Assembly (NCBI GenBank): GCA_001724265.1
Contig: MEDY01000046.1
Coordinates: forward strand, 62,001-110,427
Direction: 5' to 3'
DNA length: 48,427 nucleotides
Origin: Rhizaria sp. SCN 62-66
Taxonomy: Eukaryota
A program made the position numbers and the translations under genes. The notes under the pieces were generated by a model. That model did no database searches. It worked only from the letters and a program-made list of their open reading frames with translations, and had not been told where the DNA came from. This document shows, piece by piece, positions 15,908 through 47,712 of this stretch (positions within the stretch are counted from its first letter, which is position 1; the number at the start of each line of letters is the position of its first letter).

Positions 15908-16487
15908 GATATTTCGGCACGAAAGGACTGTCCTCAATGTGATGTGGCAAGGTGTATTTATGGGGTCTGTACGTGTCTAACTTTTATGCGGGACCTATGA
16001 GGGGCCAGATCCCGGTCGCAAATCGAAAATCCGTGACTTCAGGCACGTGTACAAGGACTAAACAGATTAATTTATTAACTTCCGGAGAATAAACTCTGAT
16101 TCATACTCAGTAATTGTTGTTTTTGTTGCATTATCGTTTGTTGATAGTCTCATATTGTGTCATATGTGTCGCTACCTCGTGTTGCTGGCTGAATCCAGCT
16201 AACTCGGCTCCTCGTCCAAACCAACAAAACAGCTACGAACAACTCATGAGACAAGCTATTTAAAACGTTCAAATGTATTTGTGTTTTGTTCCCCGTATAG
16301 AAACCTGCTCCTACAAAATCATATAATTTTTTGTCACCATATTTACTCGCTATTTTCAATTGTATTATCACTCAAAGTTGTGCGTATCTCACTGACCACT
16401 GTCTCGCGTTACCACTTCCTATCAAAGGCTAACCCACTGCATAGTAGTCGGTTCACAAGGATTTAACGTGTGTTCAACGACGAAGCA

Positions 16488-25400: not shown

Positions 25401-28400
25401 GACAATGTGGAAGACTATGACAGCAACGATGCGTCCCCGCATATGTCACTCGCAATGCCATCCTCTGTTGGTATTAATAAGCGGCAGCGCATCCAGTCAT
25501 TTTTTACGTCCACAGAGGTTGCTTCTGCCTACTCAAGGCTGCATTTCATTGCGACAACCGTTGAGACGTCTCTTGTTAAGGATACCTCAGAGCTTGCACT
25601 TGTCCGGGACCCTGCTGTTCTGAACTTAATCAAGTGGATCTGTGCGTTTGTCACACGTCTCTCAACGTGCAACAAACCTGGTGCTCCAGGCATGGACTTT
25701 GTGTTCAACGATGGACCTCTTACAATCGCACTTAAGCAAGGTCGAACTCTTCTTTTGGAAGGCCTCGATGAACCGTCAGCTGCAGTCACAGAGCGTTTTA
25801 ACAGTGCACTTGAGTACGAGCGCAACTTCAATCTCACTGAGGATGTTTTTTCGCAGCGCCAAGCTGGTGGTATTATCGCTATCCCGTCATCGTTCCGCCT
25901 GGCCGCGACAGTCACATTTGATCCGAATGCAGGCATGCTGCGGCTGTCAAGTGCGTTGCGTTCGCGTCTTACCGAGGTCTGGACGGAAGGTTATGAGGCT
26001 GCTGAACTGTGCACTGCTGTCTCTACGGTGATGCGCACTGAGGAGAGCAAATTCGCACCGGAGGCCTTGACCGCGCTGGACAATGTTATGCGTTCTGTCG
26101 TTACATGGGCTGTACCCGCGCACGCGGCGCGTGGTACTGTCTTTGGTATCCGCAACTCGCTGCGGCTTGCGCACTTTGTCACTGCGTACGCTAAGACGCA
26201 TGCCAACGTCTTTGGTCGCGAGCGTAGGATGACGCCCGAGCACGCGTGTGCGATTGCCGCGAGTGCTGTGCAGTTTGTTGTGTTGAACGCGATTCCTCGC
26301 GAAGACCGTGAGACGCTACGTGACGCACTGTCAGCTGCTGTTTTATCAAAGAGCTTCGGCAACGTGACCGTAAAACGGCTTCTTGCAGACACTAAGTTTG
26401 ACACCGCTGAGGCCGCTGCGGCAGCGCTTAAGGCAACGGCTGACGGCTACCGTGGCGCATTACCACCTTCTTTTGCTGCAGACGATAAACACTTTGATCA
26501 TCCACCGATGTGGGGTGTGAGCGCCGAAACGCGTCGCCTAGTCGCGATTGCCGAGGATGACACGACGCTCCTGGCTGGTGTTGCTGTCGTTGATACGATC
26601 GCTCTCGCACCATGTCGCCGCGGTTGGCGCGCATGCGATGTTTGGGCGGTATGGCGACATGAGCGCTTCTGCGCGCTGAAGAGCGTCCGCAAGAATCTCG
26701 AAAACATCTTCTTTGCGACGAGCCTTGGCATGCCACTTCTGCTTGAAGGTGCGCCTGGTAACGGCAAGACTGCGATTGTGCGACTCGTACACCGCGTGCT
26801 AGGCTTCGCAGGCGTCAAGACTGCCGCACGCATTGATAATGAAGTTGTTGCTGTTATTGATCCCGCTGCTCGCAAGAGTGACTTTGATCATTACGTGCGT
26901 TTGAACGCGACTCGTTCTAGTACTAGCGGCGCAATGTTCGGGCAGTATATTGCAAGCGCTGACAGTGAGGGTCAGCAGGTGTTCCTCTGGCAGGAAGGCG
27001 CCATGAGTTCGGCTTTACAAGAGGCACGCGACTGCACCGACGGTTCGCAGCTAACATTCCTTCTGCTGGATGAGATCAACACATATAGCTCAGAGATCCT
27101 ACAGACAATTGTTCCTTACATCGCTGACTCTGTTCCAGGTGCCGCTGTGACGCACGGTGACCCTGCTAAGCGCTTAGTGCCAGCGTCAGTCCGTGTGTTT
27201 GCAACGATGAATCCGGCGAGTGTCGGTGGCGGTCGCGTAACGCTTCCTCCTGCTTTGTCAAATCTGTTTGTGCGTGTAGAGCTCGAGGAGTACACAAATG
27301 ATGATCTGTGCCTCATTGTGTCGCACTTGACTCTTGGCAACGAGAAGAATATTCTCGGTAAAGCAGAGGTTGAGTTGCTACTTCGCATCCACATCAAGCT
27401 TTCTACTATGATTACGAACCGTGACATAGCATCGATTCCGCGCCACGAAAACTACAACTTGCGTGATCTGACAATGCTTCTTGCCATGGTGCGCACGTAC
27501 ACGCCTATCATGCAAGCTTTGTCGCGCCTTTCGAGTTCTAGTGGACCTGCCGTAAACGCCGCCTCATCATCATCATCATCGTCGTCTTTTTCTGCTGTAA
27601 ACACTGATGTTGCACGTGACAGCTCCGTAGCACGCCACGCAGTTAGTAAGTTCGCAAGTCTGGTCTACGCACATCGCATCTCCGACTCTAAGGAACAGGC
27701 ACTTGCGGTTAAGGCTATTGTGGATGAGACCAACAGTGCATCTGACTCTGCAGCTGCTGCTGCTCAGCAGCGTTCTGGAGCTGCTCACGACTATCTTGAT
27801 TCAGACGTTTCGTTCACTTCGCTTGCGAATGCTGAAACTGTTGCAGTTATGAGCCGGTTCATTCGTATTGGCATTGTATTTGCCCAACGTGGCCCTCACC
27901 GCTCTATGGAACTTCCATTAGTCCACACCGCGGATACGGTAGAGTTGCTGGAAGCGATGCTCGCGGCTTCTCAGTCGCGGTGCCCTGTATTGCTTGAAGG
28001 TCCGCTTTGCGGCGGCAAGACTGCTCTTGTCCGTGAGCTTGCGCGGCTTTGTGGTCACAAACTCAATACTGTTAATCTTCATCAGGACGCTGATGATGGC
28101 GATCTTGTTGGCACATGGGTCCCACGCTCTTCGGACCGTACTTCTAAGAACACTCTTGAACATGCGATTTCAGCTTCCGATGCTGTTTTCATTGCCGTTT
28201 GTGCCAATCTTCGGAAGCGCGTGCGGGCGACAATGACCTTGAAAAATGCGGCGTTACTTGTAGCGCTTGCCAAGGAACACAGGGCCATCTCTGAGGCTAC
28301 TGCAATCGACACGGCTATTGCTGCAGTCCAAGCATTCCGCACTGCGTATAACCACCTTCCTAATGCGCTTGTTTGCTCTGATCATCGGGCCTTGTTGAAG

Positions 28401-31400
28401 AAACATTCAGATGCCCTGAATGAAGAAATCAACGCCACCAGGGCCGCCAAGCGCGCTGCGGAAATTGCGGCATCCTCGGACGGTCCCACTTCGCACGCTG
28501 TCAAGTTCGAGTTTGAATACTCTAAGCTTGTCAATGCGCTTGAGACAGGTGAGTGGGTTCTGTTGGACGCAGTCACAGCGTGTCCGCCGCACGTGATTGA
28601 GCGTATCCTTTCTGTGCTCGAAGGTGAGTCGGCTAGTATGACACTGCTCGAGGATGGTACAGGTCGTATGTGGACCGCTGCACCTGTACCTGGTGGAAAC
28701 ACAAAGCTGCGCAGTCAGATCAACCCAAACTTCCGGTTGTTCCTTACTTCGACCACGGGCCGCGCAGGCACGCACAAGCTATCAAGTGCGCTGCGCAACC
28801 GTGTTGTCAAGATCACAGTACCCGCACTGCATGAGCGCAAAGGCTACGCCGAGATTCTGAATCGCGTCGCGACTCAATTCACTGCTTCGGTCGCCGATAG
28901 CTCCCTAGCTGGTGCTACGAAGCACGCGCTCCCAATGCATCTTGTCGCCAACACTGTTGTCACAGTTTTCCGCAACGTGCGCCAGCTTGTCGCGTCGTCG
29001 CGCATCACCGCTCCGCTCGGTCTCTCGCTTTCGCACCGCTCCGCTCTGTCAGCAGCTGCAATGGCCACGCGCATGGCGTCGGGACCCAATGCGGTCCCCA
29101 TGACTGTAGCGCTGGCGCGTGTGTTATCGATGATTATTGTGGATCGATTCAACGATGAAAGCGAACGCGATGAAGTCACGGACAAGATTGTTACCGCTCT
29201 CATTCCCTTCGCCAACGCCACCGGAGTTAATATGCCTGCGCCTGTCATCGAGAAGGCTTCAACAGCTGAGTTTGTCGAAAGCTCAACGGGTGCACATGCG
29301 GCGATCGTGATGCATCAGGCAATGCGCAGGCGTGGCAGGCAACTGCTACGAAGTGTCAAGAAGCTTGAACAAGACATTAAGCCAGTGGTGTCATGGCTAC
29401 TCTCAGTCGCCCCCGCTCTACAGCGCGCACCAGGTCTCGCGGTTTGGCTTGGTGATGTGACACCTTTGACGGTGCAAGAGGTGGAGATTCAAGTCGTGGC
29501 TGGGCGCGAGCTCAAAAAGGCGGCGTTGCATGTGGTCACCGAAGCAGTGGGTGCCGTGTCAGTGCTCGCAATTCCCAGCCTGCGCGATCTGCTTGCAAGC
29601 TTTGCTGATGCTGCCGCAGCTCTCAAGAAACTCCGTCCTCTTAGGAAGGCACTGCAGCTGATATCGCACAGTGGGCTTGAAGCTGTAGTGTCTGAATCCG
29701 GAGGTAACGATGCTAGGTGCGCACGCACTTTGCTTTCAGAGCTTGAAGCAGCCGTGGCTGTGTGCGACTGGATAAAAGAGGTCCGTCAAAAGCTTGATGC
29801 ACTCGCAGAGCACCGTACTTGCGCAGGGATCATCGGCGAGGCAGAAGACGCTTCGGAGCAACTGAAGGAAACTAGCGTCGATGGGCTCGCGTATGCGCTG
29901 CTTGACGAGGTCATGTCGCTCTCGCTGTTCACTAGTCCAGGTTTTAGCAAGGCTTCTGCTGGTGTGCCTGTTTTAACTCTGGGCGAAAAGCGTCGCACAC
30001 TTGTAGCCGCACTCTTAGACGCTAGTGACAAGATTAATGGACTCAACGTCTCCGCTCCTGACCAGATCAACCTCGAAGTGTTGCTCACCACATTAGCAGC
30101 GACGGCGCTCAAATGGCGTGTGATGGCAAAGACGGGCGTGGGCTCTTTGCAACGTGTTGTGCTGCGTCACGACGAGTTGTTGCAATATTTCGATGCCGCC
30201 GTCCTTCATAAAGTTAAGATTGCATTAACTGACTTTTTGGTAATTACAAGCTCTGTGTACAAAAAGGCACCCAACCTCATGGACAACGACCTCTTCTTTG
30301 AACGGATCGGTCCTGGTACTCTACTATGGCAGAAATGCGAGCAAGTAGTGTTTTCTGGCGTATGTAACAGGCTCAATGCAGCTGCCTTACTTGCATGTGT
30401 TCCTGAGCATCGTTCAACTGTGGACGCAGCCACAAACCGGGTGCAATCGTGTGCGCTTTCAACTGCTCGGTTAGATACAGACGAGTGGATGTCTCACCCG
30501 CTTGGGTTGATGATGCTCACGGTGCACCATGCGCTGTTTTACCCCCATTCGCCGCGCCACGACATTGTGGCCGTGCGTTACCACAGTCTGGCCGCAATGG
30601 ATGACCCAGCTCTTGACCGCTACGCAGCGCTGCGCGCGGACGAAGCCGCCTCCGATTCCGTGGAGGTTCACATTGCTTGGGTGCCTGTGCATGCGACTGC
30701 GCAGTTTGCGCACGCTGATGTGCAGCGTGACTTTGGTGTGCTCGTGACGTTCCCTACTTTTCCAGCTCCTGCAGCGGGTCTCCCGATGACTGACTCCGAT
30801 CATGAGCAAAGGGATGAAAATAAAAGCGATGAGATGGAGGCTGGCACAGCTCAATGCAACAGGGTTGGTCGTGCTGCAGTGTTAATTGTACCTGCATCGA
30901 CTCTCCGTCATAAGGAAACTAAGAATCGTCTCGACAATGATTGGTGCCTGCGTTTTCCCGGGTTGCGAGTCATTACAGTCGACGTCAAGGTTAGCTATGA
31001 TCACATTGCGCCCGTTGCCCGTAGTGTGCTCCCCAATCAGCAACACGAAGAGGAGGAAGAAGAGGGTGTACCTATATACGGTCATGCGTCAGCACCGATG
31101 GTCGATGAAGATGTCGAAGAAGAGTTGGCCAAGCCCATAAGCGTCGTGTCCGCCCTCTGCCTTACAGTCAAGAATGTACTTGTAGGTCATCTTGCGCATC
31201 CCGCTGCTCTTATCAAGCTTGGCGCAACTCAATCTATTGACGTCGAGCAACATCGAGGCGAGCCCGAGTTGCTCTTTGAACGCGATAGCCAGCAGCTACT
31301 GAGTGAGCTCCGATCATACACCAACAATGTCTCTGTTGATGTCACACAATCTGTTCCCGCAGAGCTAACGCGCGCTCGCGAGGCAATGCGCGTGAGCCAA

Positions 31401-34400
31401 ATCTTTGACGTATTGGTTGACCAGTTTCAACAATCCAACGGCGAGCGTCCAGATCAGGCAGTCACGTATTTCCGCGAAAATGGGCTCATCCCGATAAAGT
31501 CAGCGGACGATGCGTTTATCATTGAGCTATCTTTAGTCGCTAATCTGACTTGGGAAAGCATCTCTCGAGTTCCTGCACATGAGCATGCTCAAGCCATGTT
31601 CCAGCTGCGCGACTGTATCAATAATAGCATTGTATTCAAGCTACCGCAAGACATGAACATCGACGATCATCCCCTAACTGATGTAATTTCTGCGTTCGAA
31701 GACAGGAGTGAACAGCAAAGTCGTTTCGCGCCCGCGCTTGACTCTGCGCGTAAACTCCTCGGGTGTACCCTCGATGGAGTGGCGGCGGCCGAGGCTCTTA
31801 TTAAGGGTGTTGCCAATGTACTGTTAATTGATAGTCAGCACGTAGCAACACGTCAAACCTCGCGTGGTTATGTCTTCCGTCGCCTGATGCAACTGGTTGT
31901 ACTTTGGGAGGTCATGTGCACAGCTATGACCGCGCTGGGTGACGCTGTTGCAACGTTTGACGGTATGGTGTCGCAATGTTCGGGTGCTGCCGACATCCTT
32001 CGCGCGCTGGCCGCAGTTTATCTTGCAAGTGTACATACGAATGCTGCTGCAGACGCAATTCCAAAATATGCGTTGGAACTTGGTGACTCAAAGAGCGAGC
32101 TCATGGTAGCCCTTAACGGAGCAGTGAAGACTATTGGTGCGCTTGCGAACAACTTTTGGCGTGCAGCTGAGAATCTTGACCCAAACATCAAGGGAAATGC
32201 TGAGAACAATCAGGTGTCCGATACAGCTGTGGCCGAGGTCGCGAAGCAACGTGACCGCGCGAATGAGCAGGAACAGCGAGCGCAAGCAGATCAAAAGGCC
32301 CGCGAAGAAGAGATGTTACGTCGCCGTCGCGCCCGTTTCAGTGATGTCCGGGAGCGTTTGCACAAACTCTTGCATCGCGTGAGCCGTACTGGTGACGCGC
32401 AGCTGCTGCAGCGTGGACTGGCGCTTTTAAGTGGATTGGACAAGCTGCTCAAGCAGGCGCACGAAGAACCTGTGACGGGCGCTATGCTGGTTGAACTTGA
32501 CACTCAGGTCAAGGAGCTCGGCATCTACGAGGCTGATCTTGCAACAGTCGAGCGCAATGGCAATGCTAACTCTGTTGCATTGCAACACCTGCTCGACGAT
32601 CCTGATATCAAAGCAGCAGCTGCTTTAAATGAAGACTCATGTCGTCAGCTGAGTCCTGACGACGACAGATCACGTGTTATCGCAATTGAAAAGCTTATCA
32701 ACATTTGGCAGAGATACAACCTTGCTTCATACTGTCAGAAAGCAACAGTGGCTGTTCACCAGATCGACAAGTTCGTGAAGAATCTTCATGTGATTTGTGA
32801 CCGTGGAACCGCGATGCTTGATGTGACTGTACTACGGGTATTTGAGGGTGATTTTACTCGTTTTCTTGCGCCTAGTATTCGACTTGCAAACCAGAGTTAT
32901 GCTGAATGGGTTTCGAAGCTGACGACACATATCGTTTCGCTTGTGCATTCAGTTGAAACGCATGATGGTAAGAAGTGCGATCATGTCTTGCACATCCTAG
33001 GTATCATGGCATATCTGCGGACGCTGCTTCAAGGGGCTTGCCGCGGTACGAGTGACACGTCTACGTGCAGGCTAACTGTGGCTGTCGATAGGATTGCAGC
33101 GACAGAATGTGCAGCTCGTGATGGTTTTGAAGTGCCTTTGTGGGCTGCTTATGCGATTAAACAGCCTGCTGAGATGACTTTGTCGAGCTGGCCTGGTGTT
33201 ACAACGACGACTGCCGCCTTTATGGGTCCTGAACAGCTCAGTCGCGTCCTTCCTGATCTCACTTGGGCGTTTAGTGCTGTAATCGCGCCCTTCGCCGACT
33301 TGGTCTCGGCGTTTCCCCAGCTCTCCGCTGTAACCGCGACGGCTGGGTCTTCCGACTCCGCATTGAGCCGTCGTGCACGCGAGATTGTCGCACAAATTGC
33401 GTCCGAGCTCACTGATAAGACTACACTCCTGCCTGCGACGGTGCTACCCGCACTAGCTGATGCTGTGACACTCTTCAATGACGCTAAAGGAAGTGTGTTT
33501 CACAATAGTACATCTATTACCCCGCGTGATATTGGTGTGGCACGCTTCCTGGCACTGGTCGTACTTGTGCGCGCGCATGTCACTCACCCTGAAGTCGTAG
33601 CGTTGGCGCCCCCAACTGTTGTGCCCGAGCAACTTGACGCGAAGCTGCTACAACTCCAAGAGGAACGCAGGGCTGAGCGGGACCGCACGGTTGGCATGGT
33701 CTTTTGCAACGCGATCAAGACGCAGAATGCGCGTGAGATAGCTCTGGCATCCAAGAGGAACGACAATGAGAGCGAACTGCGTCGGCTTAAGGAGAGGATC
33801 AAGCAGGTGTTCGTGTCGGATGTTGATCGGAGGGAACATCTCTCAAAACAAGAAAATGATCTTATTGCGAAGCACAAACGTGAGACTGATGATTTGGTCC
33901 GTAAGTGGGACGTGTCAAATTCGACTCTGGCTGCGGCCCGTAGTCAACTTGAGGCGTTTGATAAGGACACCGCTATCCTGATAGGCGAGGCTCGGCAGGA
34001 CGCTATTCCGTACAAAGCCACGTTATTCTCTGCGCTCGCGTGCTTGCTCACCCCAACCGGACTCGATCCTACCATGTTGACCGACATGTTAACCAATAGT
34101 GCTCTCCCGCAGGTTCTCAGCTGTGTATTCGATGACTTCCCTCTCAGTGCTTCTGAGCTGCATGAGCGCATGGTGCGGGCCGATCAATTGTTATGTGACC
34201 TTTATCAATCTCGTACTGATTTGAGCTTGCAAGCACCGTTTACGAAAATGCTTGGTTGCTTGATTATGACATCTTGTGGCGAGATTAAAGGTGTTTTTGA
34301 CGCGGCCGAGGCTGATGAGAAGGCGGGAGCTGCGCTGTCGACAGCAGAAAAAACTCCTGGTTCAGTGCGCGCCGCGGCCGCAGATGCACTTTCTCAGAGT

Positions 34401-37400
34401 CGGTGGCTGCACGATTTCACGAACAAATTCTTCGATACACACTGCGCCGCGGACGGATTGGAGACGCACACACAGTCTCGGCACATTCGCACCGATATTA
34501 CGGGTGCCGCATCACTATGTCTTACGCTTAAGAGTGCTCTTCAAAACACGAAAGATGCAGTACAGCATGCGCCGCGAGTCATTTTCACCGCGACGGGCAG
34601 ATCTGTTACCAATCAAGACGAGCAGGACACCAATGTGTCAATGTCTCTCAAGCACTCGGTGCGTGTGCGTCACCTAATGATCGCACTTGTGAGTGCGACA
34701 AGTACATATCTCCGTTCAACATACGAGCCAGGGTGTCTTCATGGCGTCATTTCCAACGAAGATGAGCTCGCAGCTGCCGAGATTCCTGCGCTGACGACGA
34801 CAACTGCAGAGGCTAATAACAAGGACACGATGGTCGACGAAGATGGATCAACGCCGGCTCCAGCTTCTGGAGCGTCAACAGCTCCGACAGCTGTGGATGA
34901 AGTTGGTCGTGACAACCGACGCAAGTGCGAGCGCATGGCTGCTGCAACACGTATCGCAACCGTGACGCGTGAACTTCAGGCTCTGTTAGGCACCCATGCA
35001 GAAGCGTGTACAGGTGTGACCGCGGTGCCTCTTCTGCTCGCAGACGACCTGCGCGCCATGACGTCGGCTGTTGACACGCCTGTAATCCGCGCTGCTAACG
35101 CACTTGGCCGTCTGCGACTTGAGCTTTATCAGCTTGCTACACAGATCAATAATGACACGGCTTCGCAGCATTTTGTTGGCAGGACTTTCTATGAAGTGCA
35201 GCAAATCTTGGCTGGTGATATGCGTACTATGGCACCGCTTGTTTGTGCGGCGTCGGAGGCATTTGATGCACTCAAGAATCTCGCTACACAGCAAAATATT
35301 GCCTTCTCATCCGTGGGTGTTTTAGATAAGCTCATGCATGAGCTGCCTCGATGTGATTCCGCCGATTTTTCAGCCCCAGGAAGCGCGCCAGGTCTGATTA
35401 CACATGTTGCGACTGCGGTACGCGAAGCGCGTGTAGCTTTTTTTGAGCTGTTGTGCGTGCGCGCGAGTGTTTTGTTTGCATCCGCAGCTGCCTTTTCACG
35501 TGACCAATACTCCAGTAGCTTTGGTGAAAATGACATTGTAGACCCCGCGAAGGCGGCGCTTGTTGACACTATCTTGGACGCAACTGCGCGCGGCGCTGCC
35601 GCTATTGCAGGCGTGTGCGCTGCGGCGTGCGATGCATCACAGAATAGCCTTGGCAGCGACGTCGAGCTTGCTCCCGTTGTCACCGCGCTTGTGGGACTGC
35701 TTACGCGGGCGCTGAGGCAGATTAGGGATCTTGACGTTTCTCTGGCAAGGGATGCTGCTATTGTTCATAATGTTGCCAACTCAGACGATAACTCTGAAGG
35801 TCAAGACGACGAGGATGAGGAAAATTTGGGAGAAAATGACGATGAAACATCAGATCTCCAGATAGATAGTGCTCTGTCGTCAGACAACGACGCTCTGGCA
35901 CTTATTCTCTCGCCTTCGGCCGCTGTAGTATGGTGTCTGCGCAACGGTGTATCACGTGAACTCATCACTTGCACCGGCGATCTCATCGACTCAGTTGCAG
36001 CAGCGTGGACTAAACTTGCTGAGTTGATTGACGCCCAGCAACTGCAGCGCCTTGCCGATACTGCGGCGACTGCGCTTGCAGATCGTTCGCCAGCGCTGCA
36101 GAGTGACGAGGCGTGGGACCACTTAAGTCGGGAACGAATTCGGCAATATAAGCACGCAATGCGCGCACACGTGGAGTATCTTGACGAGTGTGTTGATATC
36201 CGCGATGGTAACGCTCGGGCGTTTGATGAGTTGATGGATATCATGCAAAGGGCGACGACGCATCATCCTATGAACTGGATGATTCATAATGTGCTTAGGC
36301 AGCACATTCCCTGGGGTCGACACAATGAGCTCGTGAGTCGACGTGATTCTGCGTATTCGATGCAACACATCTTTAATGTGCGCGTTAATGCTGTCTACTT
36401 TCCAGCAAGCATGGCAAAGATTGATTTTTTCAAAGGTCTTGTGTTCACCCCGCATATCATACTCACCTTCATTGATAAACAACTTCGCTCGGGCTCGCGG
36501 ATTGTGGTCCCGATTCATCCAGAATTGTTGAATGGTGGTATGTGTAAACTCGCTGACACTGACGTCGGCTTCTACATGGGCGCACCGATGTCTGGAAATT
36601 TTCTTCTTATGGCTACGTTTAAAGAGCATCCAGATGTTGTATTCAGTGGTGATGTTGATCTGGTGAAATTCCGCGAGGGCTTTTCGATCCTACATGCTGA
36701 ACTACAGCCGAACAACGCTGCAAAAAGGAAGAATATTGGTACTGTCGTTGTTCATCTTAAAGGCGAGGGTGAATTCACAGAACGCTGGGTGGCCCGTAAT
36801 GCCTCTCTGCGCGATGCTATTCATGGTCTCAGCTCTGCGAGTGGGGCGGAAAATGTAGCCAGCTCAGTTTTAAATGACCTTATCAGGGCTGCTGGCAAAC
36901 TCCGCAACACGCCTCAACCTGTTCAGGAGCCAACGGCCCCCACAGCACGGGGATCGCGCAAAACGATTATTGACACCATCAGGAATACGATCCGGCATGT
37001 GCTATGTAGCACGATGCCTCCCGTAAGTAACGCACTACATGCAGTTGGTGAGATGTCATCAGCATTCGCGCTCTTTAAGGAATCCACAACGGTTACACTG
37101 AGTAGCAGTGCAGCTATTGCCGAGCATACAAGTGGCGTGACTGTTCATTTAACACAGGTTGCTGATGCCGCCGACGAGATTGTGCGGTCGTGGGTGGGAA
37201 ACACGAATCTTCATCTCTTGGCCGATCTTGTGCACTCGACCGCTGCACATTCGATCAGTGGTGACCTGATGCTTGCGGGCATTGAAACGCGGACCTTACA
37301 GGCAGTGTTGGTGCAGGTGCTGCAGACTTTTGTCAGCCATGTGCACGAATGCAATCACACTGCCAACGTAAGATGGGGAAAGGCGCAGAAGGAGCTTGCG

Positions 37401-40400
37401 CATGCTATCACAGTGGTGATCATTATTGCATTGCTACACTGTACGGATTTCCGCGATGCCCAAGTTGCTATTGACGCTTTGCAATCATACTGCAAAAAGC
37501 AGGCGATCAACCGCGGCGGTGGCCATCTGTGGAGCCCCCAGGTACCGGCCAGTCTTGTAGGCGTGTTCCACACTACCCAGACGCTGCTCACTTACTGGGG
37601 TCGTGCCGCTGACAATGTTGGCAAAGTCAAGACAGGTGGCGTGCGGCCGCATGATGCCATGACTGCGCTCCGACTACCGCGTAACATGCGCGATACTCCC
37701 GTTAATCAGGCCAATCTCCGGAGTCATACCGGTGCGCTTGAGCTGTTACGCCGACTTAACTTCTCAGGCTCATCAGTCATGGAGCTCACTGAAAATTCGC
37801 CAGGTGATGATAATGGTGATAACGACGAAAATAAAGATACAGGTCAGGACGCGAGTGCTGCTGAAATACCGCGCTTTAAATGGAGCCAACCAGGAGTGAT
37901 CGCAAACTTCGGCGTGATGTGTCCCGGTGAGGCCATGGCTCATCGTGAAGTGCGCATTCGCAATGCCACGGCGCACAACGTCGAGTACACCGTTGAGCTC
38001 TGTGTGGCGGGCTCACGTGATGCTATCCCAGCCGGCGCTGACGGTTTTGCACAGCGCGCGGGACTCTGGGTGTCGCCGATGCATGGTACACTCCTGGCAG
38101 CACAGACTGCGACGCTGCGCGTGTCCGTCGAGCCGCTGTTGTCGCAGCCGATTTCGATGCTTTGGGACGTCTATGTACGCATGCGCGCTGTGCGCAGCAG
38201 CGGTATCGACCTACCTGAGACAGCGTTCCGTGTTACACGCTTGCTCGACATGCCGCGTTTGCGTCTCTCCGCTCCGCGCGTCCTGTTTGCACCCCTGAAA
38301 CTCGCGTCAGGTGGTGGCCAATTTAGCCCTGCAACAGCTTCACTGACAATCACGAACCCAGGCGAAAGCGACGTCACGTACGCTCTCTCGCTGGGCGAGC
38401 AGTGGCGCGTCACCGCCGCGCAAAGTGTTTCAGATCCTCTTGGTACTTCATCGATCGATAGAGACTGGCGCAGTGCTGTTAGCGGACCAGGGTACACTGT
38501 CGCGAGCAGCAGTAGTGCAAGCGCCAGCGTTAGCTCTCGCTCTAGCTCTCGTTTGTCGGCTCCAGCCATCGCTACGCTACCGATACGCGCAGATTGTTTC
38601 CGTCTGTCTGTCGAAGACGCTCTCTCCGCAGCGTCATCTGCGGCAACTGAAGCGCGGGTGCTTGTTGGGCCCGGGCAAAACAGGGAGGTCCGCATTGAGT
38701 GTGCGCCGCTGCCTCTTGGCAACTTTGCGTTAGCGACTGTTCTACAGTTGCGGCCCATCGGTGCAAGCGACGCGCCTGCACAGACGCTGCGTGTCCCTGT
38801 TATCGCCACTGCCACTGTTCCGCAAGCAATTGTTCGCGTGTCGCAGTCTCAACCGCTTTCTGGTTCACGCGTTGATGTAACGGCCAGAATGCAAACAGGG
38901 CTCCAGTGGACTGACATACCGGGCGTACCCTTCGTCGAAACACCGAAGCGTGATTTCGCTGACCATCGTGCACCTCGGTCACAGTCTGTGCAGCACAAAA
39001 TCACGTTTGGCACTCCGATGTCGCGTGGTGGATTACTGCGCACGGCATGTCTGATCGCTGTGGCGTCAGGCGAACGGGGTGGTGAACAGCCATATAAGGT
39101 TGAGACTGTTGAATCTCCTGCTGGTGTCACAGTGCTGTTTAACAACAAGAAGACACTTAAAGACAAGGCTGGTGGAATCGCGGCGTCGGCTTCAGTTGCA
39201 ATCATTAATGTTAGCGTGTCTATTGAGGCATATTTGGCAGTCACCTTAAAGTCTTCATTCACGGTCAAATTCAATATTATAACCGACACTTCTCAGCGAA
39301 TCGTCGAGCTCGTAATCCCGTTAGACAATGACTTCATTAGTTCCTACATCAATTCTTTGTCAATCTCATGTTCCAACGTCGACCGTGTTCTGACTCGTAC
39401 TCGTGAAAACGAAAACATGTCTCTCATCCTCACTGATACCCAGAACTTCCGCTCGTGCAAAGACCGGCCAACTGCCGTCGCGGTCCCTATTCCCGGCCAA
39501 GATGGAATTCGTCTGCTCTCAGTTTAGCGCTCACCCAGTAACACTCTCACAGTGCCGTTACCGGAACCTGCCACAGATGTTGCGTTGTCCAGCTACCGGT
39601 TTGGAGTTGCAGCCTGGCAAATGGGTTCATCCGACTACCGGCCGGCGTATGCGACCGTAACACCATTGTTTCCACGCCTCCGCTTTTCGTGGGAAGTCGG
39701 TGATGCTGACAAGAGCGGTCGCGTGACCGTTACTGTCACGGTGCACAACATAGGCAATCACCGCGGTGCACTCGCGCTGGGCATTCCTGATTTATCTGGG
39801 GCTGAAAACGTCGATTCGGTCGTGTATCGGGGTGGTGATATGCGAGAGTGCAACAGTGAGAGTGATTTCTTCAATGATCTTTCGGAGGCAACCCATGTGC
39901 CTGCTGCGAGTAAGCGTGGAAATCGCGTGAACAACCAGAGTGACGCTCCAGAGCCACGCTACTGGCGAACTCTCGAGCCCCAGACGTCGACTGAGCTAGA
40001 GTTCAACATAAGGATCACCCCTGGGATCAGCGCTGACACAATCGTAGCCTCATCAATGCCAACGCTAGACGAAGGAGATGAAGAGGGTGGTAGCAGCATT
40101 ATTGCGTCTACAGCTGCCGCGTCGTTGAATGTTGCAAACTCGACGACAGACGACGCTATCGTACAGTGCCCCCTTCTGTTTTTTACTGATGAGCCCACTT
40201 TGCTGTCTGTCACTGGTCGTCGCCAATTTTCGGTGCCGATTGCGCGTGCGTCGACAGATCCTGCGCAGATAGACAAATATAAGCGTGATGCTATACTCGA
40301 GGACGTTCTTCATGTTCCTACGCCCCATGGAGTTCGTGTGGGAGCTCAGTGCGCCACGCGGAGCACGCACGTGACACAAGACTTCCCGTTGCCTCGTGAC

Positions 40401-43400
40401 GCTGCGGAGCTCTTCACGACGACTATGCGTTTGTTCTCTGACGCTGCCGTGACCGAGCTTGTCAACTTTAGTACCGAGTCTGTGTTGGCAGGCGCCTATA
40501 GTGGCTCTGGATATGTCGACGGCGTGTCTTTGATGGAGCGACTCACGCGTGACGCATTGGCGGAAGTGACCAAGAGTTCCTCACTAACTTATAATACGAC
40601 TGCCACAGATGACGCTGTTGCGGCTGCGATGCACAATCTGCGTGAAAATGACAGCACGGCCCAAGCGAGCAAAGAACTTGAGTGGAAGATGCCGATGGTG
40701 GTCGAGGCGCCCAGCGTTGGTGATGTAGAATGCGTTATTTGTGGCGAATCCAGTGTGGACGGTGCCGGTTGGTTGATGTGTAACGCACAATCGTGCGATG
40801 GCAAGCACGTCCTGTGTAGTGACTGCGCATGTGGCTATGTTGAAACGAGTGTGTTCGCCGAGCTCATGGCTAAGAATGTGACCTCTGTGTCAAATGCAGA
40901 CGTATTTGCCGACACAGAAGGTATCGTGTTCTGTATGGCGACAACGCGCCACCCTGTCCGTCTGGCGCTTCTGACAGCCCAGGTTGCGGGTACGCGTGCG
41001 GCAGATGTAGCTGGTCAGTGCATGGCACCGCCCTTCACTGACGAGCAGCTGCGCCGAGTGCCCAATGTCTGGCAGCGCGTCGTTGCTGCCCGACAGCACC
41101 TTGCGGCCCTCAAGCGCCAGCGTGATGAATGTGTGCGTGCTGAGGAAGAGCGTGTGCGCTTACTTGATGAGGAGGAACAACGCAAGGCGCGCAAACGCAG
41201 TCAAGCTGAAGCTGACATTCGCCAGCAATTCGCGGGGATGAGCAATCTTCTTCAGTGCCCACGATGTGGCCACGGACCCGTCGAGGCGTTGAACTGCTCC
41301 AACTTACAAACACACAATGGGCAGGCATCTGGCAGGGGAGTGATCAACAACTCGTGTGGTGCATGTAGTTTTTTTTCAGCTGATCGGAACGCCTGGCACG
41401 CATTCAATGGCGACTTTTCACGCTTATTAAACGATGTTGCCGTCAGTAAAAACCTTACTGTGAGGCAGCAGTCGCCCGCTGAGCTCACCCAGCAGGCGGC
41501 AGAACGCGAAATTCGCAGCAAGGATTTCATCCTAGGCGCCGAGATCTGTCAACGTTCGTTAAAGCGCGCGCATGTAGCTCTAAAGTCATCGTCGGCGATG
41601 TTGGGCGCCGCCCTGAGTGGACTGGCGAACAACGCACTTTGGTTGCCGTCTTTCCGTACCGCTGCACGTATTACTGGCGAACTTGCTCGCGCGTGGCAGC
41701 ACTTACATGAAGCCTTCCGTACTGCCATCGACCGTGCGAAGCCGCAGTTCTTACTTAGCGTGATTGATTGGACTGCTGCGATAGGTCTTTTCAAACACCT
41801 ATTACGCTCTGTCAAACTTGCCAGTGCTCTCTTTGCACCCATTGCACCACGCCCAGTTGCAACTTCCGTCATTCTTTCTGGGACTGCAGCTACAAATAAT
41901 GAGTTAGTATGGCGCCGCGCTCCCGCAGTTGGTCTTGCGAATCTGCGACGCCAAGTGTTGGCCTTTGCTCGCACCGTCAGTCGCGAGGACCGCGCGCGCG
42001 ACGTTGCAGACAGTCTGCGTGAGGCTGACCCTGACGTCGGTGTCGTCCGTTTTGCTGATGATACGGCTGCTGCTGCCGCTGAGCGTGACCGCGCCCACGC
42101 CGAGCAAGAGAATAGCACCGAGGACGACACTGCCGCCCGCAAGCGCGCCGCGGAGCAGCGCGAGCGCGAGGACGAAGATGAACGTGATCGAGCTCGCGAT
42201 CGCCGTCGCAAGCGTGAGCATCAGGAACAAGCCGAACGCGAGGCTGCTGAAGAGGCTGCGCGTGCCGCTGCAGAAGCTGAACGTCGACTTCAAGAAGAAG
42301 AAGCCCAGGACGCGGAGGACGAAGCCAATGATGTTGGCAACGCTGATGAGCGGCGTGAGCGTGCTGCTGAGCGTGAGCAAGCGCGCGCTGCCGCGCAGCA
42401 AGCAGCTGATCTTGCAGCAGTCGATGGCGCTCCTGGCGCCGCTGCTCCTGACGCCGGTACTGGTGGCGGGACGGCTGGAGCTGCGGATGCCGCTGCGGCA
42501 GCTGTCGCTGCAGCGGCTGCAACGGACCCAGCGTACCGTGCACTGAGGCAAGACGACATCAACAATGCGTTCGACGCCGCGAGGCAAGCGTACGCGAACC
42601 AGCGTCTCGGTCGCGGTGCTGAGGGCCTACGTGGGGCTGCTGCGGCGCAGGCTGCAGCGGACGCTCTTGAAGGGCGTGGGCACCCTACCTGGGCGGCAAC
42701 GGTGGCCGCAACTGTTGCCGCCGCGGCTGTGGCAGCAACCAATGGAACAACTGCCGCTGCCGCGAATGCGGCGGCGGTAGAGGCTGCTAATGTGATGGCG
42801 CAGCGCCACCACGGGCTGCAGCTGCGCGAGGATGACATCGCCGCTGCCGCCGAGCGCGCCTTTGGCGGTGTCCGTGACGGTCGTGCTCAGGGCCGCGACG
42901 TGGATGCTGCAGCGCGCGATGCTATTCGTGAAGGACTCGTGGGTGTCGGTTTCCAGTTCAACACGGAGAATCAGGTCCGCAATGAGCGCGTGCAGGCCGA
43001 TGCTGCGGCAGCTGCGGCCGATGCAGCGACAACTGCAGCGCGCGCCGCGAACCGCGGAGCCGCAGCCGCTGCTGTCGCTGCGGCTACGGCCGCTGCGTTT
43101 GCGAACGAGGCGGGTCGCGGCGCGGCTGCAGCTGCGGCCGCAGCTGCCGCAGCTGGTGCTGCAATCGACGGTGGCGCAAATGCTGAAGCTGCCGTGGCCG
43201 CTGCTGTTGCTGCTGCAGCAGCTATCGATGCTGGCGCGAATTCTGGGGCTGCAGCTGATGCTGGCCGTCGTGCGGCCGCAGCCGTCACCTCCTACGGACC
43301 TGGTCACGGCCACGGCACAGGTAATGGAACTCGTAACGGTCGCCCTGCCCACGGCCTTGGTCGCGGCGACGAAAGCGGTCATGGCCCCAACAACGGAGAT

Positions 43401-46400
43401 GGCGCGGAAGAGGAAGAAGAGGAGGCTGTGGAGGACGCGATGCTGACTCAGCAGCGTCTTCGCGACAAAGCTCGCCACCAGCAGACGCGTGACGGCACGC
43501 GCCACAACAACGCTGCCGCCGCTGGCAACAGCTCCGGGGGCGGCAGCGGCTTGAGCGCGGCTCAGCGCGCCATGCGTAACGCTGGGGTTGGCGACGACGC
43601 GGCAAGTGGGAACGGAGCTTGTGGCAGCTCCAACTTAGGTCGCAGTTCTGTTGCTGGAGACCCTGGCAATGGCTCTTCCGACGGCGCCACTAGCGGCAAC
43701 CATCTGCCTCGTGGCTTTGGACCCTCTGCAGCACGTGGCAGCCGAGATCGAGCAAGCGCTGGTGTTGGCCATAACACAGACCGCATCAAGTTTACAGACA
43801 GCTTTGCTGCAGAGAGTCTGCGGTCGTCACGCGTGGCCAATGCGCTCACGCGCGGCACGCTTCACATCGTGGCCGACAACGCTCATCGCAACAACGACGA
43901 CGATGACGAGGACGATGATGATAGCAGTGGAACCAAAAAGAAGAAGGCTGTGGATCCCAATGATATGGTCGAGGTCAAACTCACCGGAGAAGAGCTCGCT
44001 GCGATGCAGCACCAGATGCAGCAGCAGCGTGGCGGTGGTGCGCGCAGCTACGTCCGTATGGATGCTATCACGGACGAAGCAACTGCTTTTGCTGAGAATG
44101 ACATTCAGCGCGTTGACCACTCGACGTACGAGCTGCTTGCAAACTTGCCCTCTATGCGCACATTTGTTCGCGCTTTGGTTCAGCGCGCGCGCAGTGCCAT
44201 TATGGAGCTGAGTCGTCACCTGAGCGCTGCTCCGGAAGGCACCATGCCGGTCGCATTCTGCATTGTCATCGACTGCTCAGAGTCCATGTCAGGCCGCCGT
44301 GGTGAGTTTGCGCGCACTGCTCTTGTTTTATTGCTCGAAACGTTCCGTCGTCTTGAGTGCCCCGTCTCCGTCGTCAAGTTCTCTGGATCCCGGCAGCAGA
44401 ACGTGCTGCTGGCAATGGGCGCACGCGATCCGTTCGACTACGTGCGTGGCGAGCGCATCATGACCGAGCTCGCGCAGGCGGGCCGCGGCACGCGCTACGC
44501 CGAAGCTCTGCAGTTCACCGCGACGTCAGGCTTTACTCTCGCCAACGCTGAAGACGGCGCTGGAGACGGCGCCTTCCGCACACGACAGGTCAAGGCACTA
44601 ATGCACAGCGTGCTTGTGATTTCTGACGGTGAGATTGAGTCCGTACGTGACGAAGACATCGCCCGCAATTTGTATCCGTTCTATTCAGCACAGAACATGC
44701 ACCTGGCGTTTGTGCAAATTCACTGTGACAGCGTCAAGGGCGACAGTGCGGCAGATGACTTCAGTCAAAACACCTTTAACGCGCTGCGTGAGTTCTATAG
44801 CAAATGTACCGGTGTGCAAGCAAGTGCCCGGCAGTGGTACCATGTCTTCCGTATGCTTGATAGCAAGATGAACGAGCTTCCGCGTACCCTTGGTCGCATC
44901 GTTGAATCGCAGTTACGTGAACATATCAAGCGACTCGAGTCATCATCCGCTGCAAATGCTCCTGTTGCCCGTAATGTTGCGCACACTGCACCAGCACCGC
45001 AGGCTTCGAGCTCAGTCACAGCTGGAGTGGGCTCGGTTATGGCCACCGTGCGTCGTCTTACTCGTGTCGACAATCGCACAGCGTTAGATGCACGGAATCT
45101 CGTTGAAGATGTCATGTTTGTGGGTCCGACTGACGGTGGCGCAGCCTCCGCTGCAAGCGGCGGCACACGCGGCGGGCGCAAGGCGAAGGACGACGGCTTC
45201 CACGCTAGCGCACTTGACGCGCGCCCTCACAAGCCGGACAAGTCGGGCACCACTGTCAACAACATAGCTGCGGGCAACTCCGCTGCGCAGCGGACTGTTT
45301 CTCAGCGCGCGCAGTCGGGCCCAGACCCGCGCTGGGCGGCGACGCGCGTTGTGACTGGAGCACTGACACCTGCACACGCGCAGGTTGTCGAGAACGCTTG
45401 GCGCGAGGTCCTAGCGCGACTTGCACAGGCGCAGCGTGGCCTGGTGCATTCTTTCTCTGAGGGCTGCCTGCCGGTGAACCGTTTCTCTATCGGCGCTCCT
45501 GCCGCTAAGGGCAGCAAGCTCAGCATGGCCGGCGTCATGCGTTTCCTTTTAACTAACGGCATGAACAGGAACATCTTTGAGGCTCAAGCTGAAGGTGGCT
45601 CGCGCAAATACTCGCTGGGTATTTTGCTCGACCGCTCAAGCTCTCTCTCTGGACCCGCAGGTGCCGAGGCGCAGCGCGCGGCGGTGCTGCTCGCAGCGAC
45701 ATTCGTTTCGCTGGAACTGCCACAATTCGCCGTGATGGCTTTTGGCGACGTGATTGAAGTGCTCAAGCGCCGCGACGAGCCGTTCACTGCACTCCACAAG
45801 CTGCGTCTGCTCGCGGCCACTGAATGTGTTGCTGCTCGCACGAACGACGCCGAAGCCGTAGCCTCTATTGCGCAACACCTTGCCCAAGGCGCTGGTGACG
45901 ACACACCCGCTCTGCTGTTTGTGTTCACCGACGGTTACAGTTCCGACCCTGTCGGGCTGCGGCAGACGCTGCAGACGGCTGAAGCGCAAGGTGTGACCGT
46001 CGTCGCCGTGAGTGTGGGCAACCCCGACGCTGACGTGGCGGCGGCGTATCACCACTACGTGATGGCGCGCGACCTAGCCGCACTGCCCGACGCGCTTCTG
46101 CGCTGGGCCGGCGGTGAAGGCGCGCACCTGCCCCCGCTGCCTCCCATTGAGGATGTCTTGGACGACCTCGACGAGTCGGCGGCGCAGCTTGGTGACCGAG
46201 GGCGTGGCGACGCACATGGCGTGTGGGATGAGCGCAAGGCCCTAATGCGCACTCGTGGACAAAACCTTGAGAATGAAATTGTACTGCGCGTGAACCGCAC
46301 AGCACTGCGCAATGTTGGTGGTGGCAATATGGATGGTGGCGATAGGGACATGAGCTTTGACATTGTCATTGCCATTGATACCACGGGTAGTATGTCGTCA

Positions 46401-47105
46401 TACATTGACGGACTTCGTAGGCACGTGACGACAGTTGTCAACAACCTCGCGCAAGAGATCAAGCAACGTATTGGTCGCAATGCTGTCATTCGCCTTGGTA
46501 TTGCGCCATACAATGATCACAAGCCTGGCTGTACGCGCACAACTTGCGATACTGGCAGGTATGGCACATGCCACGCAGACTATTACCAGCCCTACGATTT
46601 TGTTGAAGACATGAACAATGCGAGCACCTTTATGCACAGCCTGAACGTCGTCAATGGTGACGACTGTGAGGATGTTCTTGGTGGTCTGTGGAAGGCGACG
46701 AACCTGACGTGGCGCGCTAACAAGGGCCGCTTTGTGCTTCTCGTCGGCGACATGCCCTGCCACGGCGTGCAGTACAACCAGCGTCAAGGGTACCCTTCGA
46801 CGCATGACTCGATTCCTGGTGGTGATCCAAAGGGTATCACGCCAGAAATGATTGTCAACAAGCTGGACGATGACGCGCGCGCCGCGGGTGCAGAGTTGCA
46901 CATGATTGCTGTCGACCCTCACAGTACAGGCAATGGTGAGCGCACGTTCATGGAGCCGATGTTGATGTATTTCAGTGACCTCCTTGAGGCCAAGGGGCGC
47001 AAGCCTGTCAAGCGCGTGCCTCAAGGACATGGAGTCGACGTTGCAGAGTTCATGCGCAACGCGCTGCACAGCATTCTCTCGCTTGTCACCGAGGACGTGC
47101 TGTAA
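16488..47105 (+). CDS. Giant midasin (Rea1/MDN1)-like protein of ~10,205 aa: 6 AAA+ modules, helical linker, Ig-like domains, RING/RBR-like Zn modules, Ala/Gly-rich linker, 3 vWA domains; two in-frame TAG codons (16491-16493, 39525-39527)
   Basis: ORFs 16518-39527 and 39552-47105 share a frame and are separated only by TAG plus 8 sense codons (RSPSNTLT). An in-frame ATG lies at 16488. The AAA ring is in the first ORF and the midasin-type MIDAS domain is in the second, as expected for one polypeptide. Final stop is TAA. Confidence 0.8.
20690..28810 (+). other. Six tandem MoxR/midasin-type AAA+ modules
   Basis: Walker A motifs: GETGQGKS (20703), GPAASGKT (22656), GDAATGKT (23586), GPSGVKT (24822, degenerate), GAPGNGKT (26748), GPLCGGKT (27999). 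Midasin-like motifs F.W..GPL..A, LDE.NL, ERLN, FRL.AT.NP, LS.ALR.R are also present. Confidence 0.9.
37890..40030 (+). other. Tandem Ig-like beta-sandwich (ASH/PapD-like) domains spanning the second TAG
   Basis: Patterns ANFGVMCPGE..REVRIRNAT..VSPMHGTLLAAQTATLRVSVEP; VLFAPL..ASLTITNPGESDVTYAL..VGPGQNREVRIECAP; VTVTVTVHNIGN..LEPQTSTELEFNI. Confidence 0.6.
40731..41380 (+). other. RING-like Zn finger followed by an RBR Rcat/RING2-like Cys cluster
   Basis: CVIC-x11-C..C..H.LC..C..C..C, a charged helical spacer, then CPRCGHGPVEALNCSNLQTH..NNSCGAC. Confidence 0.6.
42060..43760 (+). repeat. Low-complexity coding region: Glu/Arg/Ala coiled coil followed by poly-Ala/Gly-rich repeats
   Basis: Many GCN runs, e.g. 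AAAAAVAAATAAA, GAAAAAAAAAAAGAA, AAVAAAVAAAAA. Confidence 0.8.
44250..47102 (+). other. Three von Willebrand A domains with MIDAS-type motifs
   Basis: vWA1 IVIDCSES (44271)..GT..VISDGE. vWA2 ILLDRSSS (45630)..TND..VFTDG, preceded by the midasin-like GSKLSMAGVMRFL..NIF..RKYSLGILLD. vWA3 IAIDTTGSM (46377)..YNDH..GDDCEDVLGGL..L.W..VGDMPCHG. Confidence 0.88.
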
Positions 47106-47302
47106 AGCATTCTACGCAAGTGAATCTTTGCGCCGTCACTAGTCACGAATCGTGGGTTCTAAAGAATCATGTGTTCTAAATCTATTCACGATAATCACTT
47201 CAGAGCGACTAAGTACGATAATTTGATTCGAGAAGCGCTTGTTTTTATTTTATTTGCCCCAATCAACTGTATTTAGATTCAGTAATGCCACAATATTTCA
47301 TG

Positions 47303-47351
47303 AAACAAAACAAAGAAAAAAGAAGAAAAAACAAAACGGAAAAAACGTAAA
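47303..47351. repeat. A-rich low-complexity tract in the convergent intergenic region
   Basis: aaacaaaacaaagaaaaaagaagaaaaaacaaaacggaaaaaacgtaaa. Confidence 0.7.
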
Positions 47352-47712
47352 CACGGAAGATCGCAGTTCGATATCGTTGTTTTGAGTTGGAGATCTCAAC
47401 TTTATTTCGCGCTCTATTTTAAGAGGCTTTAAGTGCATACATGTACTCACAATTATTTGAATAAAATACTGTTTTAATCACAACGCGAGACTGTCACAAT
47501 CACGTTCTGAAAATGTATGTTCACTTCTATGTAAAAATAATCAATTGGACAATGTGATTTCGCATCTCAGGAGAGACTCCAGTGGTACACACGCTGGCCG
47601 TGTGGTACACAATGAAGTAATTTCGGTTACGATTTTTGGTTTAATACGTAACTACTTCGACTTTAAGAGCAATACAGATGCTCAATTACTCAGAACTCAG
47701 AACTAACTTTGA

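Follow-up and report, generated by a model that had tools for sequence, protein, structure and literature searches.

Midasin (Rea1/Mdn1) is a one-chain AAA motor of ribosome assembly whose parts are ordered, in the accessible text of two reports, as ring, linker, acidic stretch and MIDAS (PMC11603028, PMC8837202). For stop codons that are passed by the ribosome, the accessible part of a report on Moloney murine leukaemia virus (MoMLV) describes an 8-nucleotide (nt) purine-rich spacer followed by a 50-nt H-type pseudoknot (PMC13517186). Here we describe a gene that invites comparison with both. It lies in a 48,427-nt stretch of contig MEDY01000046.1, assigned to Rhizaria sp. SCN 62-66 (hereafter the window, meaning the whole stretch analysed), a eukaryotic contig from a bioreactor/wastewater metagenome assembly, in which a single in-frame TAG separates a long frame encoding a midasin-type motor from a second long frame encoding vWA domains. 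An earlier note made from the letters of the window alone (the original prediction) had drawn attention to this TAG as a site of possible readthrough. In the reading that we favour, and to which we give an even chance of being correct, the TAG is a young, lineage-specific nonsense codon in one midasin-like giant gene, passed at most by unassisted leakage.

The in-frame TAG and the two open frames

The TAG occupies positions 39525-39527, in the context ..CTG CTC TCA GTT TAG CGC TCA CCC.., in frame with the sequence on either side and with no spacer between the two open frames (Table 1), exactly as had been described in the original prediction. When the TAG is read as X, the two frames become a single one of 10,212 codons (16467..47105). 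A downstream frame of this length is impossible as a chance event, and its codon frequencies correlate with those of the upstream half at r 0.89, compared with 0.27 and 0.02 for its two other frames. The guanine-plus-cytosine (GC) content within 100 nt on either side of the TAG is 0.56, whereas spacers measured at six gene boundaries of the window, 251-759 nt in length, have values of 0.36-0.44; AT-rich sequence resembling these six boundaries was not found at the TAG junction.

To place the TAG in independent material, we used a run search that listed 11 runs from 5 studies, 9 of them covering the stretch in part or whole. Four runs were aligned, as assembled contigs and not raw reads, on positions 28428-48427. 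They include X3, a DNA run that does not belong to the study from which the window may derive, X8, which is a polyA metatranscriptome from a third study, and X4, from the same study as X8. Throughout, statements about contigs apply to the 32 records listed (183 further records exist), and counts of single-nucleotide polymorphisms (SNPs) apply to the differences listed (147 further differences exist). A 916-nt X3 contig (record 5, 39375-40290) matches the window without a single difference, TAG included, and the contig from the X8 RNA library that crosses the site is likewise identical (Table 1). An X4 contig of 2,526 nt spans 39371-41893 with 2 differences (places not listed) and a 3-nt insertion behind 40330. 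Because contigs of two further studies, X3 and X8, carry identical letters, the TAG is a genuine genomic codon and not an assembly error. Overall, the TAG-bearing form was assembled in three studies dated 2015 to 2025.

The upstream half carries a ring of six concatenated AAA_5 modules on a single chain. Pfam places AAA_5 on four stretches at E 4.9e-66 and on one more at E 7.1e-5, together with AAA_lid_7 at E 1.9e-7; the codons of the canonical Walker A motifs start at 20703, 22656, 23586, 26748 and 27999, and a sixth, degenerate motif was recognised by eye. The five best of the seven solved-structure matches of the AAA region are midasin (E 5.4e-69 to 2.1e-65), the sole non-midasin match being NorQ (E 3e-9 and 1.4e-7). 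The downstream half holds two Cys-rich clusters, beta-rich sequence, a coiled charged stretch, an Ala-rich low-complexity stretch and an acidic stretch that precedes the vWA domains, the second of which also gives a weak match to the solved Midasin MIDAS chain 6qt8_A (residues 1987-2163, E 5e-4). Of the E3-like, RING-like and vWA modules named in the original prediction, the vWA assignment is upheld by Pfam, but the ligase assignment is not: no RING, RBR, HECT, RZ or other E3 family was found in Pfam at E<=0.01 or at E<=10, the Atlas gave no usable match, and what remains of the RING-like label is the two Cys-rich clusters. The Ala-rich low complexity occupies 42200-43500, about 400 codons with 36-41 Ala per 100 residues and a GC content of up to 0.65, and several runs have loose ends and false joints within it.

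Because the two frames are in register with zero spacer, agree in codon usage, keep a coding-like GC content across the junction and carry midasin-type parts on both sides, they most likely represent one giant midasin-like gene of an uncultured, intron-poor wastewater protist, and the original prediction's joining of an AAA half and a vWA half into one gene is therefore sustained. Joining the two frames rebuilds a known one-chain architecture at about twice its usual size. Under the standard code, with TAG 39525 preceding the vWA part, ring and MIDAS would stand on a single polypeptide only with readthrough. The protein library that we searched contains the two frames as separate entries, one of 7,669 aa that starts at a TTG and one of 2,494 aa (P0004) that starts at ATG 39621; these are mechanical calls and no evidence for two genes. 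The original prediction had the downstream ORF called only from a GTG, and a GTG at 39552 is indeed its first start-like codon, but an in-frame ATG follows, at which any separate downstream product would start (Table 1).

At the other end of the gene, the sole in-frame ATG upstream of the giant frame (16488) is directly followed by a TAG (16488-16493, ATG TAG CCC), and the first ATG inside the frame lies at 16734, 80 codons in (Met81). An upstream exon and Met81 are the putative candidates for the start, with the TAG at 16491 read as the acceptor of a 114-nt intron.

An AlphaFold2 model of 38925-40424, made from the single sequence with the TAG as Q, was unusable (mean predicted local distance difference test score, pLDDT, 33.7), and Pfam at E<=10 found no family in the 599 residues before the TAG, nor in a 342-residue piece across it. 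No other 200 nt of the 30.6-kb frame are as poor in GC as those just upstream of the TAG, at 39194-39393 (0.40). This patch still has a coding score, and the amino-acid make-up of the strand-like stretch that it encodes, rich in Ile, Asn, Ser and Phe, may explain its low GC content.

Stop-codon context, introns and relatives

A hairpin downstream of the TAG had been proposed as a stimulator of readthrough. RNAfold recovers the stem as it had been drawn, 7 nt after the TAG, with 39535-36 and 39538-45 paired to 39551-53, 39557-61 and 39563-64, but its energy is at the level of shuffled sequence. The 51 nt that contain the stem fold at -6.5 kcal/mol, where their shuffles average -7.58 (z +0.43; equalled or bettered by 125 of 200), a 141-nt context at -31.7 against -38.7 kcal/mol (z +1.87; 192 of 200) and the 300 nt downstream at -99.7 against -103.08 kcal/mol (z +0.62; 149 of 200), while Rfam gave no match over 39300-39900 at E<=1. 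Because the energy is no better than that of shuffled sequence in all three folds, the hairpin is a chance pairing, and the part assigned to it as a stimulator is not supported. The leaky UAG of plant viruses is followed by the motif CAR YYA. The codons that follow the TAG in the window are CGC UCA and do not fit it. Apart from a C at position +4, no readthrough signal was found in the folds, in Rfam or in the codons 3' of the stop.

We also examined whether splicing could remove the TAG. The introns of the window, three supported by protein continuity and one putative (Table 1), are uniform: they are 114-123 nt long, begin with GT[AG]CG[AT] and end with NGTAG. The alternative raised in the original prediction, a 216-nt intron at 39312-39527, fits them neither in its ends (GTAATC/TTTAG against GTRCGW/NGTAG) nor in its length, and we reject it and read the interval as coding. 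As had been stated, the interval contains no other in-frame stop, being open over all 71 codons. Its in-frame coding score is 11.8 (10th percentile of the windows of the gene) compared with -5 to -36 for non-coding sequence, and its first codons, V-I-P-L, fall within a motif common to a relative, P0005 (11 of 3,000 shuffles score as high). The X8 contig is colinear with the window through most of the interval and across the TAG, and so unspliced there, with the proviso that an RNA library can contain DNA and that contigs cannot exclude a minor spliced form. A joint between 39311 and 39528, which had been named among the observations that would refute readthrough, was not seen in the contigs of any of the four runs aligned. 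No GTRCGW...GTAG pair on the plus strand spans the TAG. One further pairing, GTACTC at 39397 with the AG of the TAG (131 nt), was rejected, as it would break the frame. A loose end of X8 at 48207, considered as a splice site of the neighbouring gene, was likewise rejected: its letters are no minus-strand acceptor, and it is no proof that X8 carries spliced RNA.

The same local signature bears on the start of the gene. Since the putative intron ends exactly where the giant frame opens, the TAG at 16491 would be its acceptor site and not a second read-through TAG. More generally, so uniform an intron signature in an intron-poor genome could aid the binning and annotation of other contigs of this organism.

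Relatives are scarce. An exhaustive HMMER search of 1.84 billion representative proteins, with a query of 1,199 residues centred on the TAG, returned five proteins, of which two are the window's own pieces and three are short fragments (P0005, 450 aa; P0006, 687 aa; P0007, 252 aa). The family is nearly unsampled. P0006, encoded on a public contig of 9,564 nt, is the sole relative that reaches the place of the TAG; it is about 30% identical downstream, and its relationship to the sequence that follows the TAG is clear (a score that 0 of 3,000 shuffles attained). In the HMMER and the MAFFT alignment alike, the TAG faces Ala60 of P0006, whose called frame has no stop in the preceding 59 residues, so that P0006, as aligned, shows no stop conserved at this place. 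Searches with a word index added nothing to this picture: the junction region, compared with proteins of 5,426-17,266 aa (458 candidates scored), recovered only the window's own 7,669-aa call; the vWA region (459 candidates scored) recovered none at the lengths searched, shorter or fused forms lying outside them; and P0006 recovered only itself. Alignment A1 offered no conserved stretch that could be used. Two scans of metagenome contigs (A2; the first 400 downstream residues) found no relative and did not recover the window itself either. Narrow full-text searches of the literature found no description of such a gene, which is not proof of its absence from print.

Haplotypes and the competing readings of the TAG

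The contigs show how the TAG-bearing sequence varies between samples. Upstream of about 39384, the X4 contigs differ from the window by 0.8-4.8% (14/743, 8/779, 50/2,376, 42/879 and 16/1,897), compared with 0.08-0.14% downstream of 39371 (2/2,526, 2/2,397 and 1/725); X3 contigs show 0 differences downstream of the TAG, and two X8 contigs downstream differ by about 1% (3/312 and 3/238). Because of the upstream differences of X4 and the downstream differences of X8, at least two haplotypes circulate, and the contigs over the TAG represent the window-like type. The divergence of X4 drops by a factor of about ten or more at 39371-39384, roughly 150 nt ahead of the TAG; a boundary between haplotypes, a recombination boundary or a mixture of strains could account for this. 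In all three of X3, X4 and X8, contigs begin at 39365-39375. Both X4 indels listed in the giant gene are in frame, one on each side of the TAG (6 nt inserted behind 33045 and 3 nt behind 40330). The 29 SNPs listed upstream split into 15 synonymous and 14 non-synonymous. X8 has no cover in several bins, including 47104-47770, from which we draw nothing.

These observations can be assembled as follows. The TAG is real, the halves on either side of it are colinear, coding and related, no significant structure follows it and no intron fits it. The layout of the gene would be an N-terminal region, a six-module AAA ring, a long linker, Cys-rich and acidic or low-complexity stretches and C-terminal vWA/MIDAS-type domains, and a nonsense substitution, carried by a widespread haplotype, would have arisen within it; the TAG would be retained in the RNA and not spliced out. 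Ribosomes would mostly terminate at it, giving a protein of about 7,600 aa with the motor and without the vWA part. The 2,525 codons beyond could be reached in two ways, by near-cognate, unassisted decoding of a weak UAG-C or through a second, uninterrupted allele, and no dedicated RNA signal for passing the TAG would be involved. Because P0006 has Ala60 opposite the TAG, the stop is not likely to be ancient; we infer that it is young, that termination is the main outcome and that any leak is low. With near-identical copies bearing the TAG, an intact downstream frame of 7.6 kb is expected even if that frame is neutral, and its intactness therefore proves nothing.

Several observations weigh against this account of a young nonsense codon. 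The base after the TAG is a C, as had been pointed out, which is a weak or leaky termination context, and 0 of 6 other ORF ends in the window share it (G, A, A, G, A, T). Those six ends are four TGA and two TAA, none of them a TAG. The variants listed downstream (one in-frame 3-nt insertion, 2 synonymous SNPs and 1 non-synonymous SNP) look constrained, though they are too few to weigh, and 5 of the 8 X8 contigs listed lie downstream of the TAG, so that this part of the gene does appear in an RNA library. An allele found unchanged across three studies would be odd if it were harmful, unless the lineage were clonal or the allele sheltered. A more divergent haplotype exists in the samples, and the contigs over the TAG cover the window-like type only; should cells with the TAG also carry the other haplotype, and this have a sense codon at the site, the TAG would be a sheltered nonsense allele. 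Finally, the relative on which the age of the stop depends is itself ambiguous. Codon identity in orthologues had been put forward as a check, and in this one relative the residue aligned with the TAG is Ala60, but the similarity of the first 60 residues of P0006 to the 75 that precede the TAG is no greater than chance (equalled by 1,546 of 3,000 shuffles), and its Met1 could be a true start, which makes P0006 weak support, with continuity across the place unproven.

The original prediction inferred partial readthrough. In a programmed form of it, maintained by selection, a set fraction of ribosomes would decode UAG-C with a near-cognate tRNA and the cell would make two isoforms, the motor alone (about 7,680 aa) and the full protein with its Cys-rich and vWA modules (about 10,200 aa). 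This account would explain an in-frame stop behind which 2,525 codons stay open and share the codon usage of the upstream half, a +4 C unlike the base at all six other ORF ends, a TAG unchanged in three studies, an RNA-library contig that bridges it with others downstream, and a downstream indel polymorphism, the single one listed, that keeps the frame. It sits poorly with the absence of significant 3' structure in three folds and of any Rfam element, with a CGC UCA that misfits the leaky-UAG hexamer, and with the pyrimidine-rich spacer before the weak stem, where the accessible text on MoMLV has a purine-rich spacer of 8 nt (PMC13517186). The sole relative that reaches the site lacks a stop, and the divergence observed is too small to reveal selection on the downstream frame. 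We regard programmed readthrough as unlikely. We are similarly doubtful of the more specific proposal that one UAG without a canonical stimulatory structure provides both a bare motor and a motor tethered to a Cys-rich and vWA/MIDAS substrate-binding end. A separate expression of the downstream half, from a transcript that starts inside the upstream coding region and uses ATG 39621, would instead let the halves act in trans, as do bacterial MoxR and vWA proteins, which the accessible parts of three reports describe as separate chains (NorQ/NorD, RavA/ViaA; PMC9976466, PMC13036017, PMC10585395). The position of the low-GC patch just upstream of the TAG, the shared starts of contigs from three runs and the P0006 Met some 60 residues before the equivalent place, preceded by no more than chance similarity upstream, are all consistent with such a start. 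Yet there is zero spacer, the GC content of the junction is coding-like, the low-GC patch has an in-frame coding score and can be aligned with P0005, the TAG is bridged by an RNA-library contig, and the exact sharing of a frame would be a one-in-three coincidence, and we therefore consider separate expression improbable.

Were TAG a sense codon, or not only a stop, read by a dedicated or relaxed tRNA and kept very rare, this would account for the lack of TAG at the other six ORF ends and for the second in-frame TAG right after the sole ATG upstream of the giant frame (16488-16493); the accessible text of two reports describes reassignments of UAG alone in protists (PMC11687900, PMC10553269). 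Reassigned codons, however, are normally far commoner than 1 TAG per 10,203 codons, the phosphoglycerate kinase ORF and the 2,170-codon ORF become no longer when TAG is read as X, and the TAG at 16491 is accounted for by an intron acceptor (ATGTAG, in a 114-nt unit with the local motifs). In addition, a count of 0 of 6 would arise about one time in five if TAG ended a fifth of all genes, the sample being too small, and a tRNA search of the window found no tRNA gene in it, so that a sense TAG seems to us highly improbable. We see scarcely more than a slim chance, and a shade less than for a sense TAG, that an intron removes the TAG, whether at 39312-39527 or through another GT..AG pair across it. 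The GT at 39312 and the AG at 39526-27 are in phase, such that removal preserves the frame, a pyrimidine-rich run precedes the AG, the GC content of the interval (0.48) falls in the lowest 6% of the 216-nt windows of the gene, and contigs show the presence of a form and not the absence of another, so that a spliced minority form could exist. Against this, its ends and length misfit the local introns and no pair of the local type spans the TAG; its 71 open codons score as coding and begin with the motif common to P0005; and the X8 contig runs colinearly over 39365-39653, with no joint in the contigs of any run. That a sequencing or assembly error created the TAG is a concern that any window from a metagenome assembly raises, but the same letters in X3 and X8 contigs, beyond the possible source run, contradict it, and we give it next to no weight.

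Which account holds determines how much interest the TAG deserves. If it is a young truncating mutation, as we favour, there is nothing remarkable in it: giant genes offer mutation a large target, and one haplotype has been captured in a metagenome assembly. The stop is of interest only if it is passed at a meaningful rate, at the level of protein or ribosomes. Were a fixed share of ribosomes to pass it, it would be one of the rare instances in cells of translational recoding that doses the substrate-binding end of an AAA motor, and it would indicate that recoding is possible without the structures usually sought. Sequence by itself cannot tell these apart, and RNA and protein data from existing samples can answer the question.

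Neighbouring genes and comparison with known systems

The genes of the window are ordinary eukaryotic ones, located on both strands with AT-rich spacers between them, and include an intronless phosphoglycerate kinase (PGK), a one-intron peptidyl-tRNA hydrolase and a two-intron C2-domain gene. The PGK ends in ...AKL, which we take to resemble a type-1 peroxisomal targeting signal, and this ending hints at a peroxisomal or glycosomal share in glycolysis. A large gene on the minus strand (1-7156, more than 2,170 codons) extends past the edge of the window; its first exon is ubiquitin-like, and a phase-2 intron splits its C2 domain in the middle of an SDPYV motif. The coordinates of all features are collected in Table 1.

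Table 1. Features of the window discussed in the text, with positions counted from its first letter.
Feature	Position	Strand	Description
Intron	6776..6655	-	122 nt; GTACGT...TTGTAG; protein continuity
Intron	6559..6437	-	123 nt; GTACGT...TTGTAG; protein continuity
Phosphoglycerate kinase (PGK)	7989-9308	-	Intronless; ends ...AKL
Intron	13519..13405	-	115 nt; GTACGA...TCGTAG; protein continuity
Putative intron	16380..16493	+	114 nt; GTGCGT...ATGTAG; ends exactly where the giant frame opens
Upstream open frame	16494..39524, TAG to 39527	+	7,677 codons: N-terminal region, AAA ring, long linker, all-beta-looking region
Midasin-type AAA ring	20655..28803	+	AAA_5, AAA_lid_7, five canonical Walker A motifs, sixth degenerate by eye
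X8 RNA-library contig (record 27)	39365-39653		289 nt, 0 differences, 0 gaps; 160 nt and 126 nt flanking the TAG
Downstream open frame	39528..47105	+	2,525 codons plus TAA; same frame, zero spacer
Weak hairpin	39535..39564	+	Stem starts 7 nt after the TAG; indistinguishable from chance
First in-frame ATG after the TAG	39621..39623	+	Codon 32 of the downstream frame; would start any separate downstream product
Cys-rich cluster 1	40731..40862	+	Two CxxC pairs and His; common to P0006 and P0007; no recognised RING
Cys-rich cluster 2	41256..41402	+	CPxC...CGxC; common to P0007; Pfam Zn_ribbon_3 only, E 0.15
vWA domain 1	44262..44522	+	Pfam VWA_2 E 5.5e-11, best stretch residues 1579-1665 of the downstream frame
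vWA domain 2	45621..46031	+	Pfam VWA E 2.6e-14, residues 2032-2168 of the downstream frame
Possible vWA domain 3	46365..46466	+	Pfam VWA_4 E 0.0016, 18.5 bits against a cut-off of 27

Set beside systems already described, the gene shares features with each and departs from each. RNF213 (mysterin), presumably the model behind the E3-like label of the original prediction, is likewise a giant protein in which, in the accessible text, a dynein-like AAA core is combined with zinc-binding ligase modules. In the gene described here, by contrast, no RING or other E3 family was found in Pfam and no solved RNF213 chain is among the matches, and the likeness consists of Cys-rich clusters placed after an AAA motor. 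The MoxR systems NorQ/NorD and RavA/ViaA resemble it in pairing an AAA_5-class ATPase with a vWA protein, and the accessible text on them indicates that the two functions are workable as two chains. They differ in that they are small, single-module ATPases that form hexamers and are encoded in separate genes with their own starts, whereas here six modules and the vWA part share one frame.

The resemblance to the retroviral gag-pol of MoMLV and to the leaky UAG of plant viruses lies in an in-frame UAG behind which a long frame adds functional domains, and in the structure proposed about 8 nt downstream. If the TAG were truly read through, the gene would show a cell applying to an AAA motor the strategy that viruses use for gag-pol. 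Its details depart from the viral cases: the spacer is pyrimidine-rich and the stem at chance level, unlike the arrangement in MoMLV, and the hexamer of the plant viruses is not matched.

The closest correspondence is with midasin, with which the gene shares a six-module AAA_5 ring, AAA_lid_7, a long linker, an acidic stretch and a C-terminal vWA/MIDAS-type domain, the last by a weak match. Relative to midasin, it has 10,203 codons where solved chains have about 4,700-4,900 residues, two or three vWA domains where midasin has one, and in addition two Cys-rich clusters and an Ala-rich low-complexity block; an in-frame TAG parts its ring and linker from its vWA domains. It may be the midasin orthologue of this organism or a paralogue. 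Whatever the fate of ribosomes at the TAG, the gene is noteworthy in its own right, as an unusual, oversized form within a known motor family, the midasin type: it is about twice the usual size, has almost no relatives among 1.84 billion representative proteins and carries vWA and Cys-rich modules beyond those of midasin.

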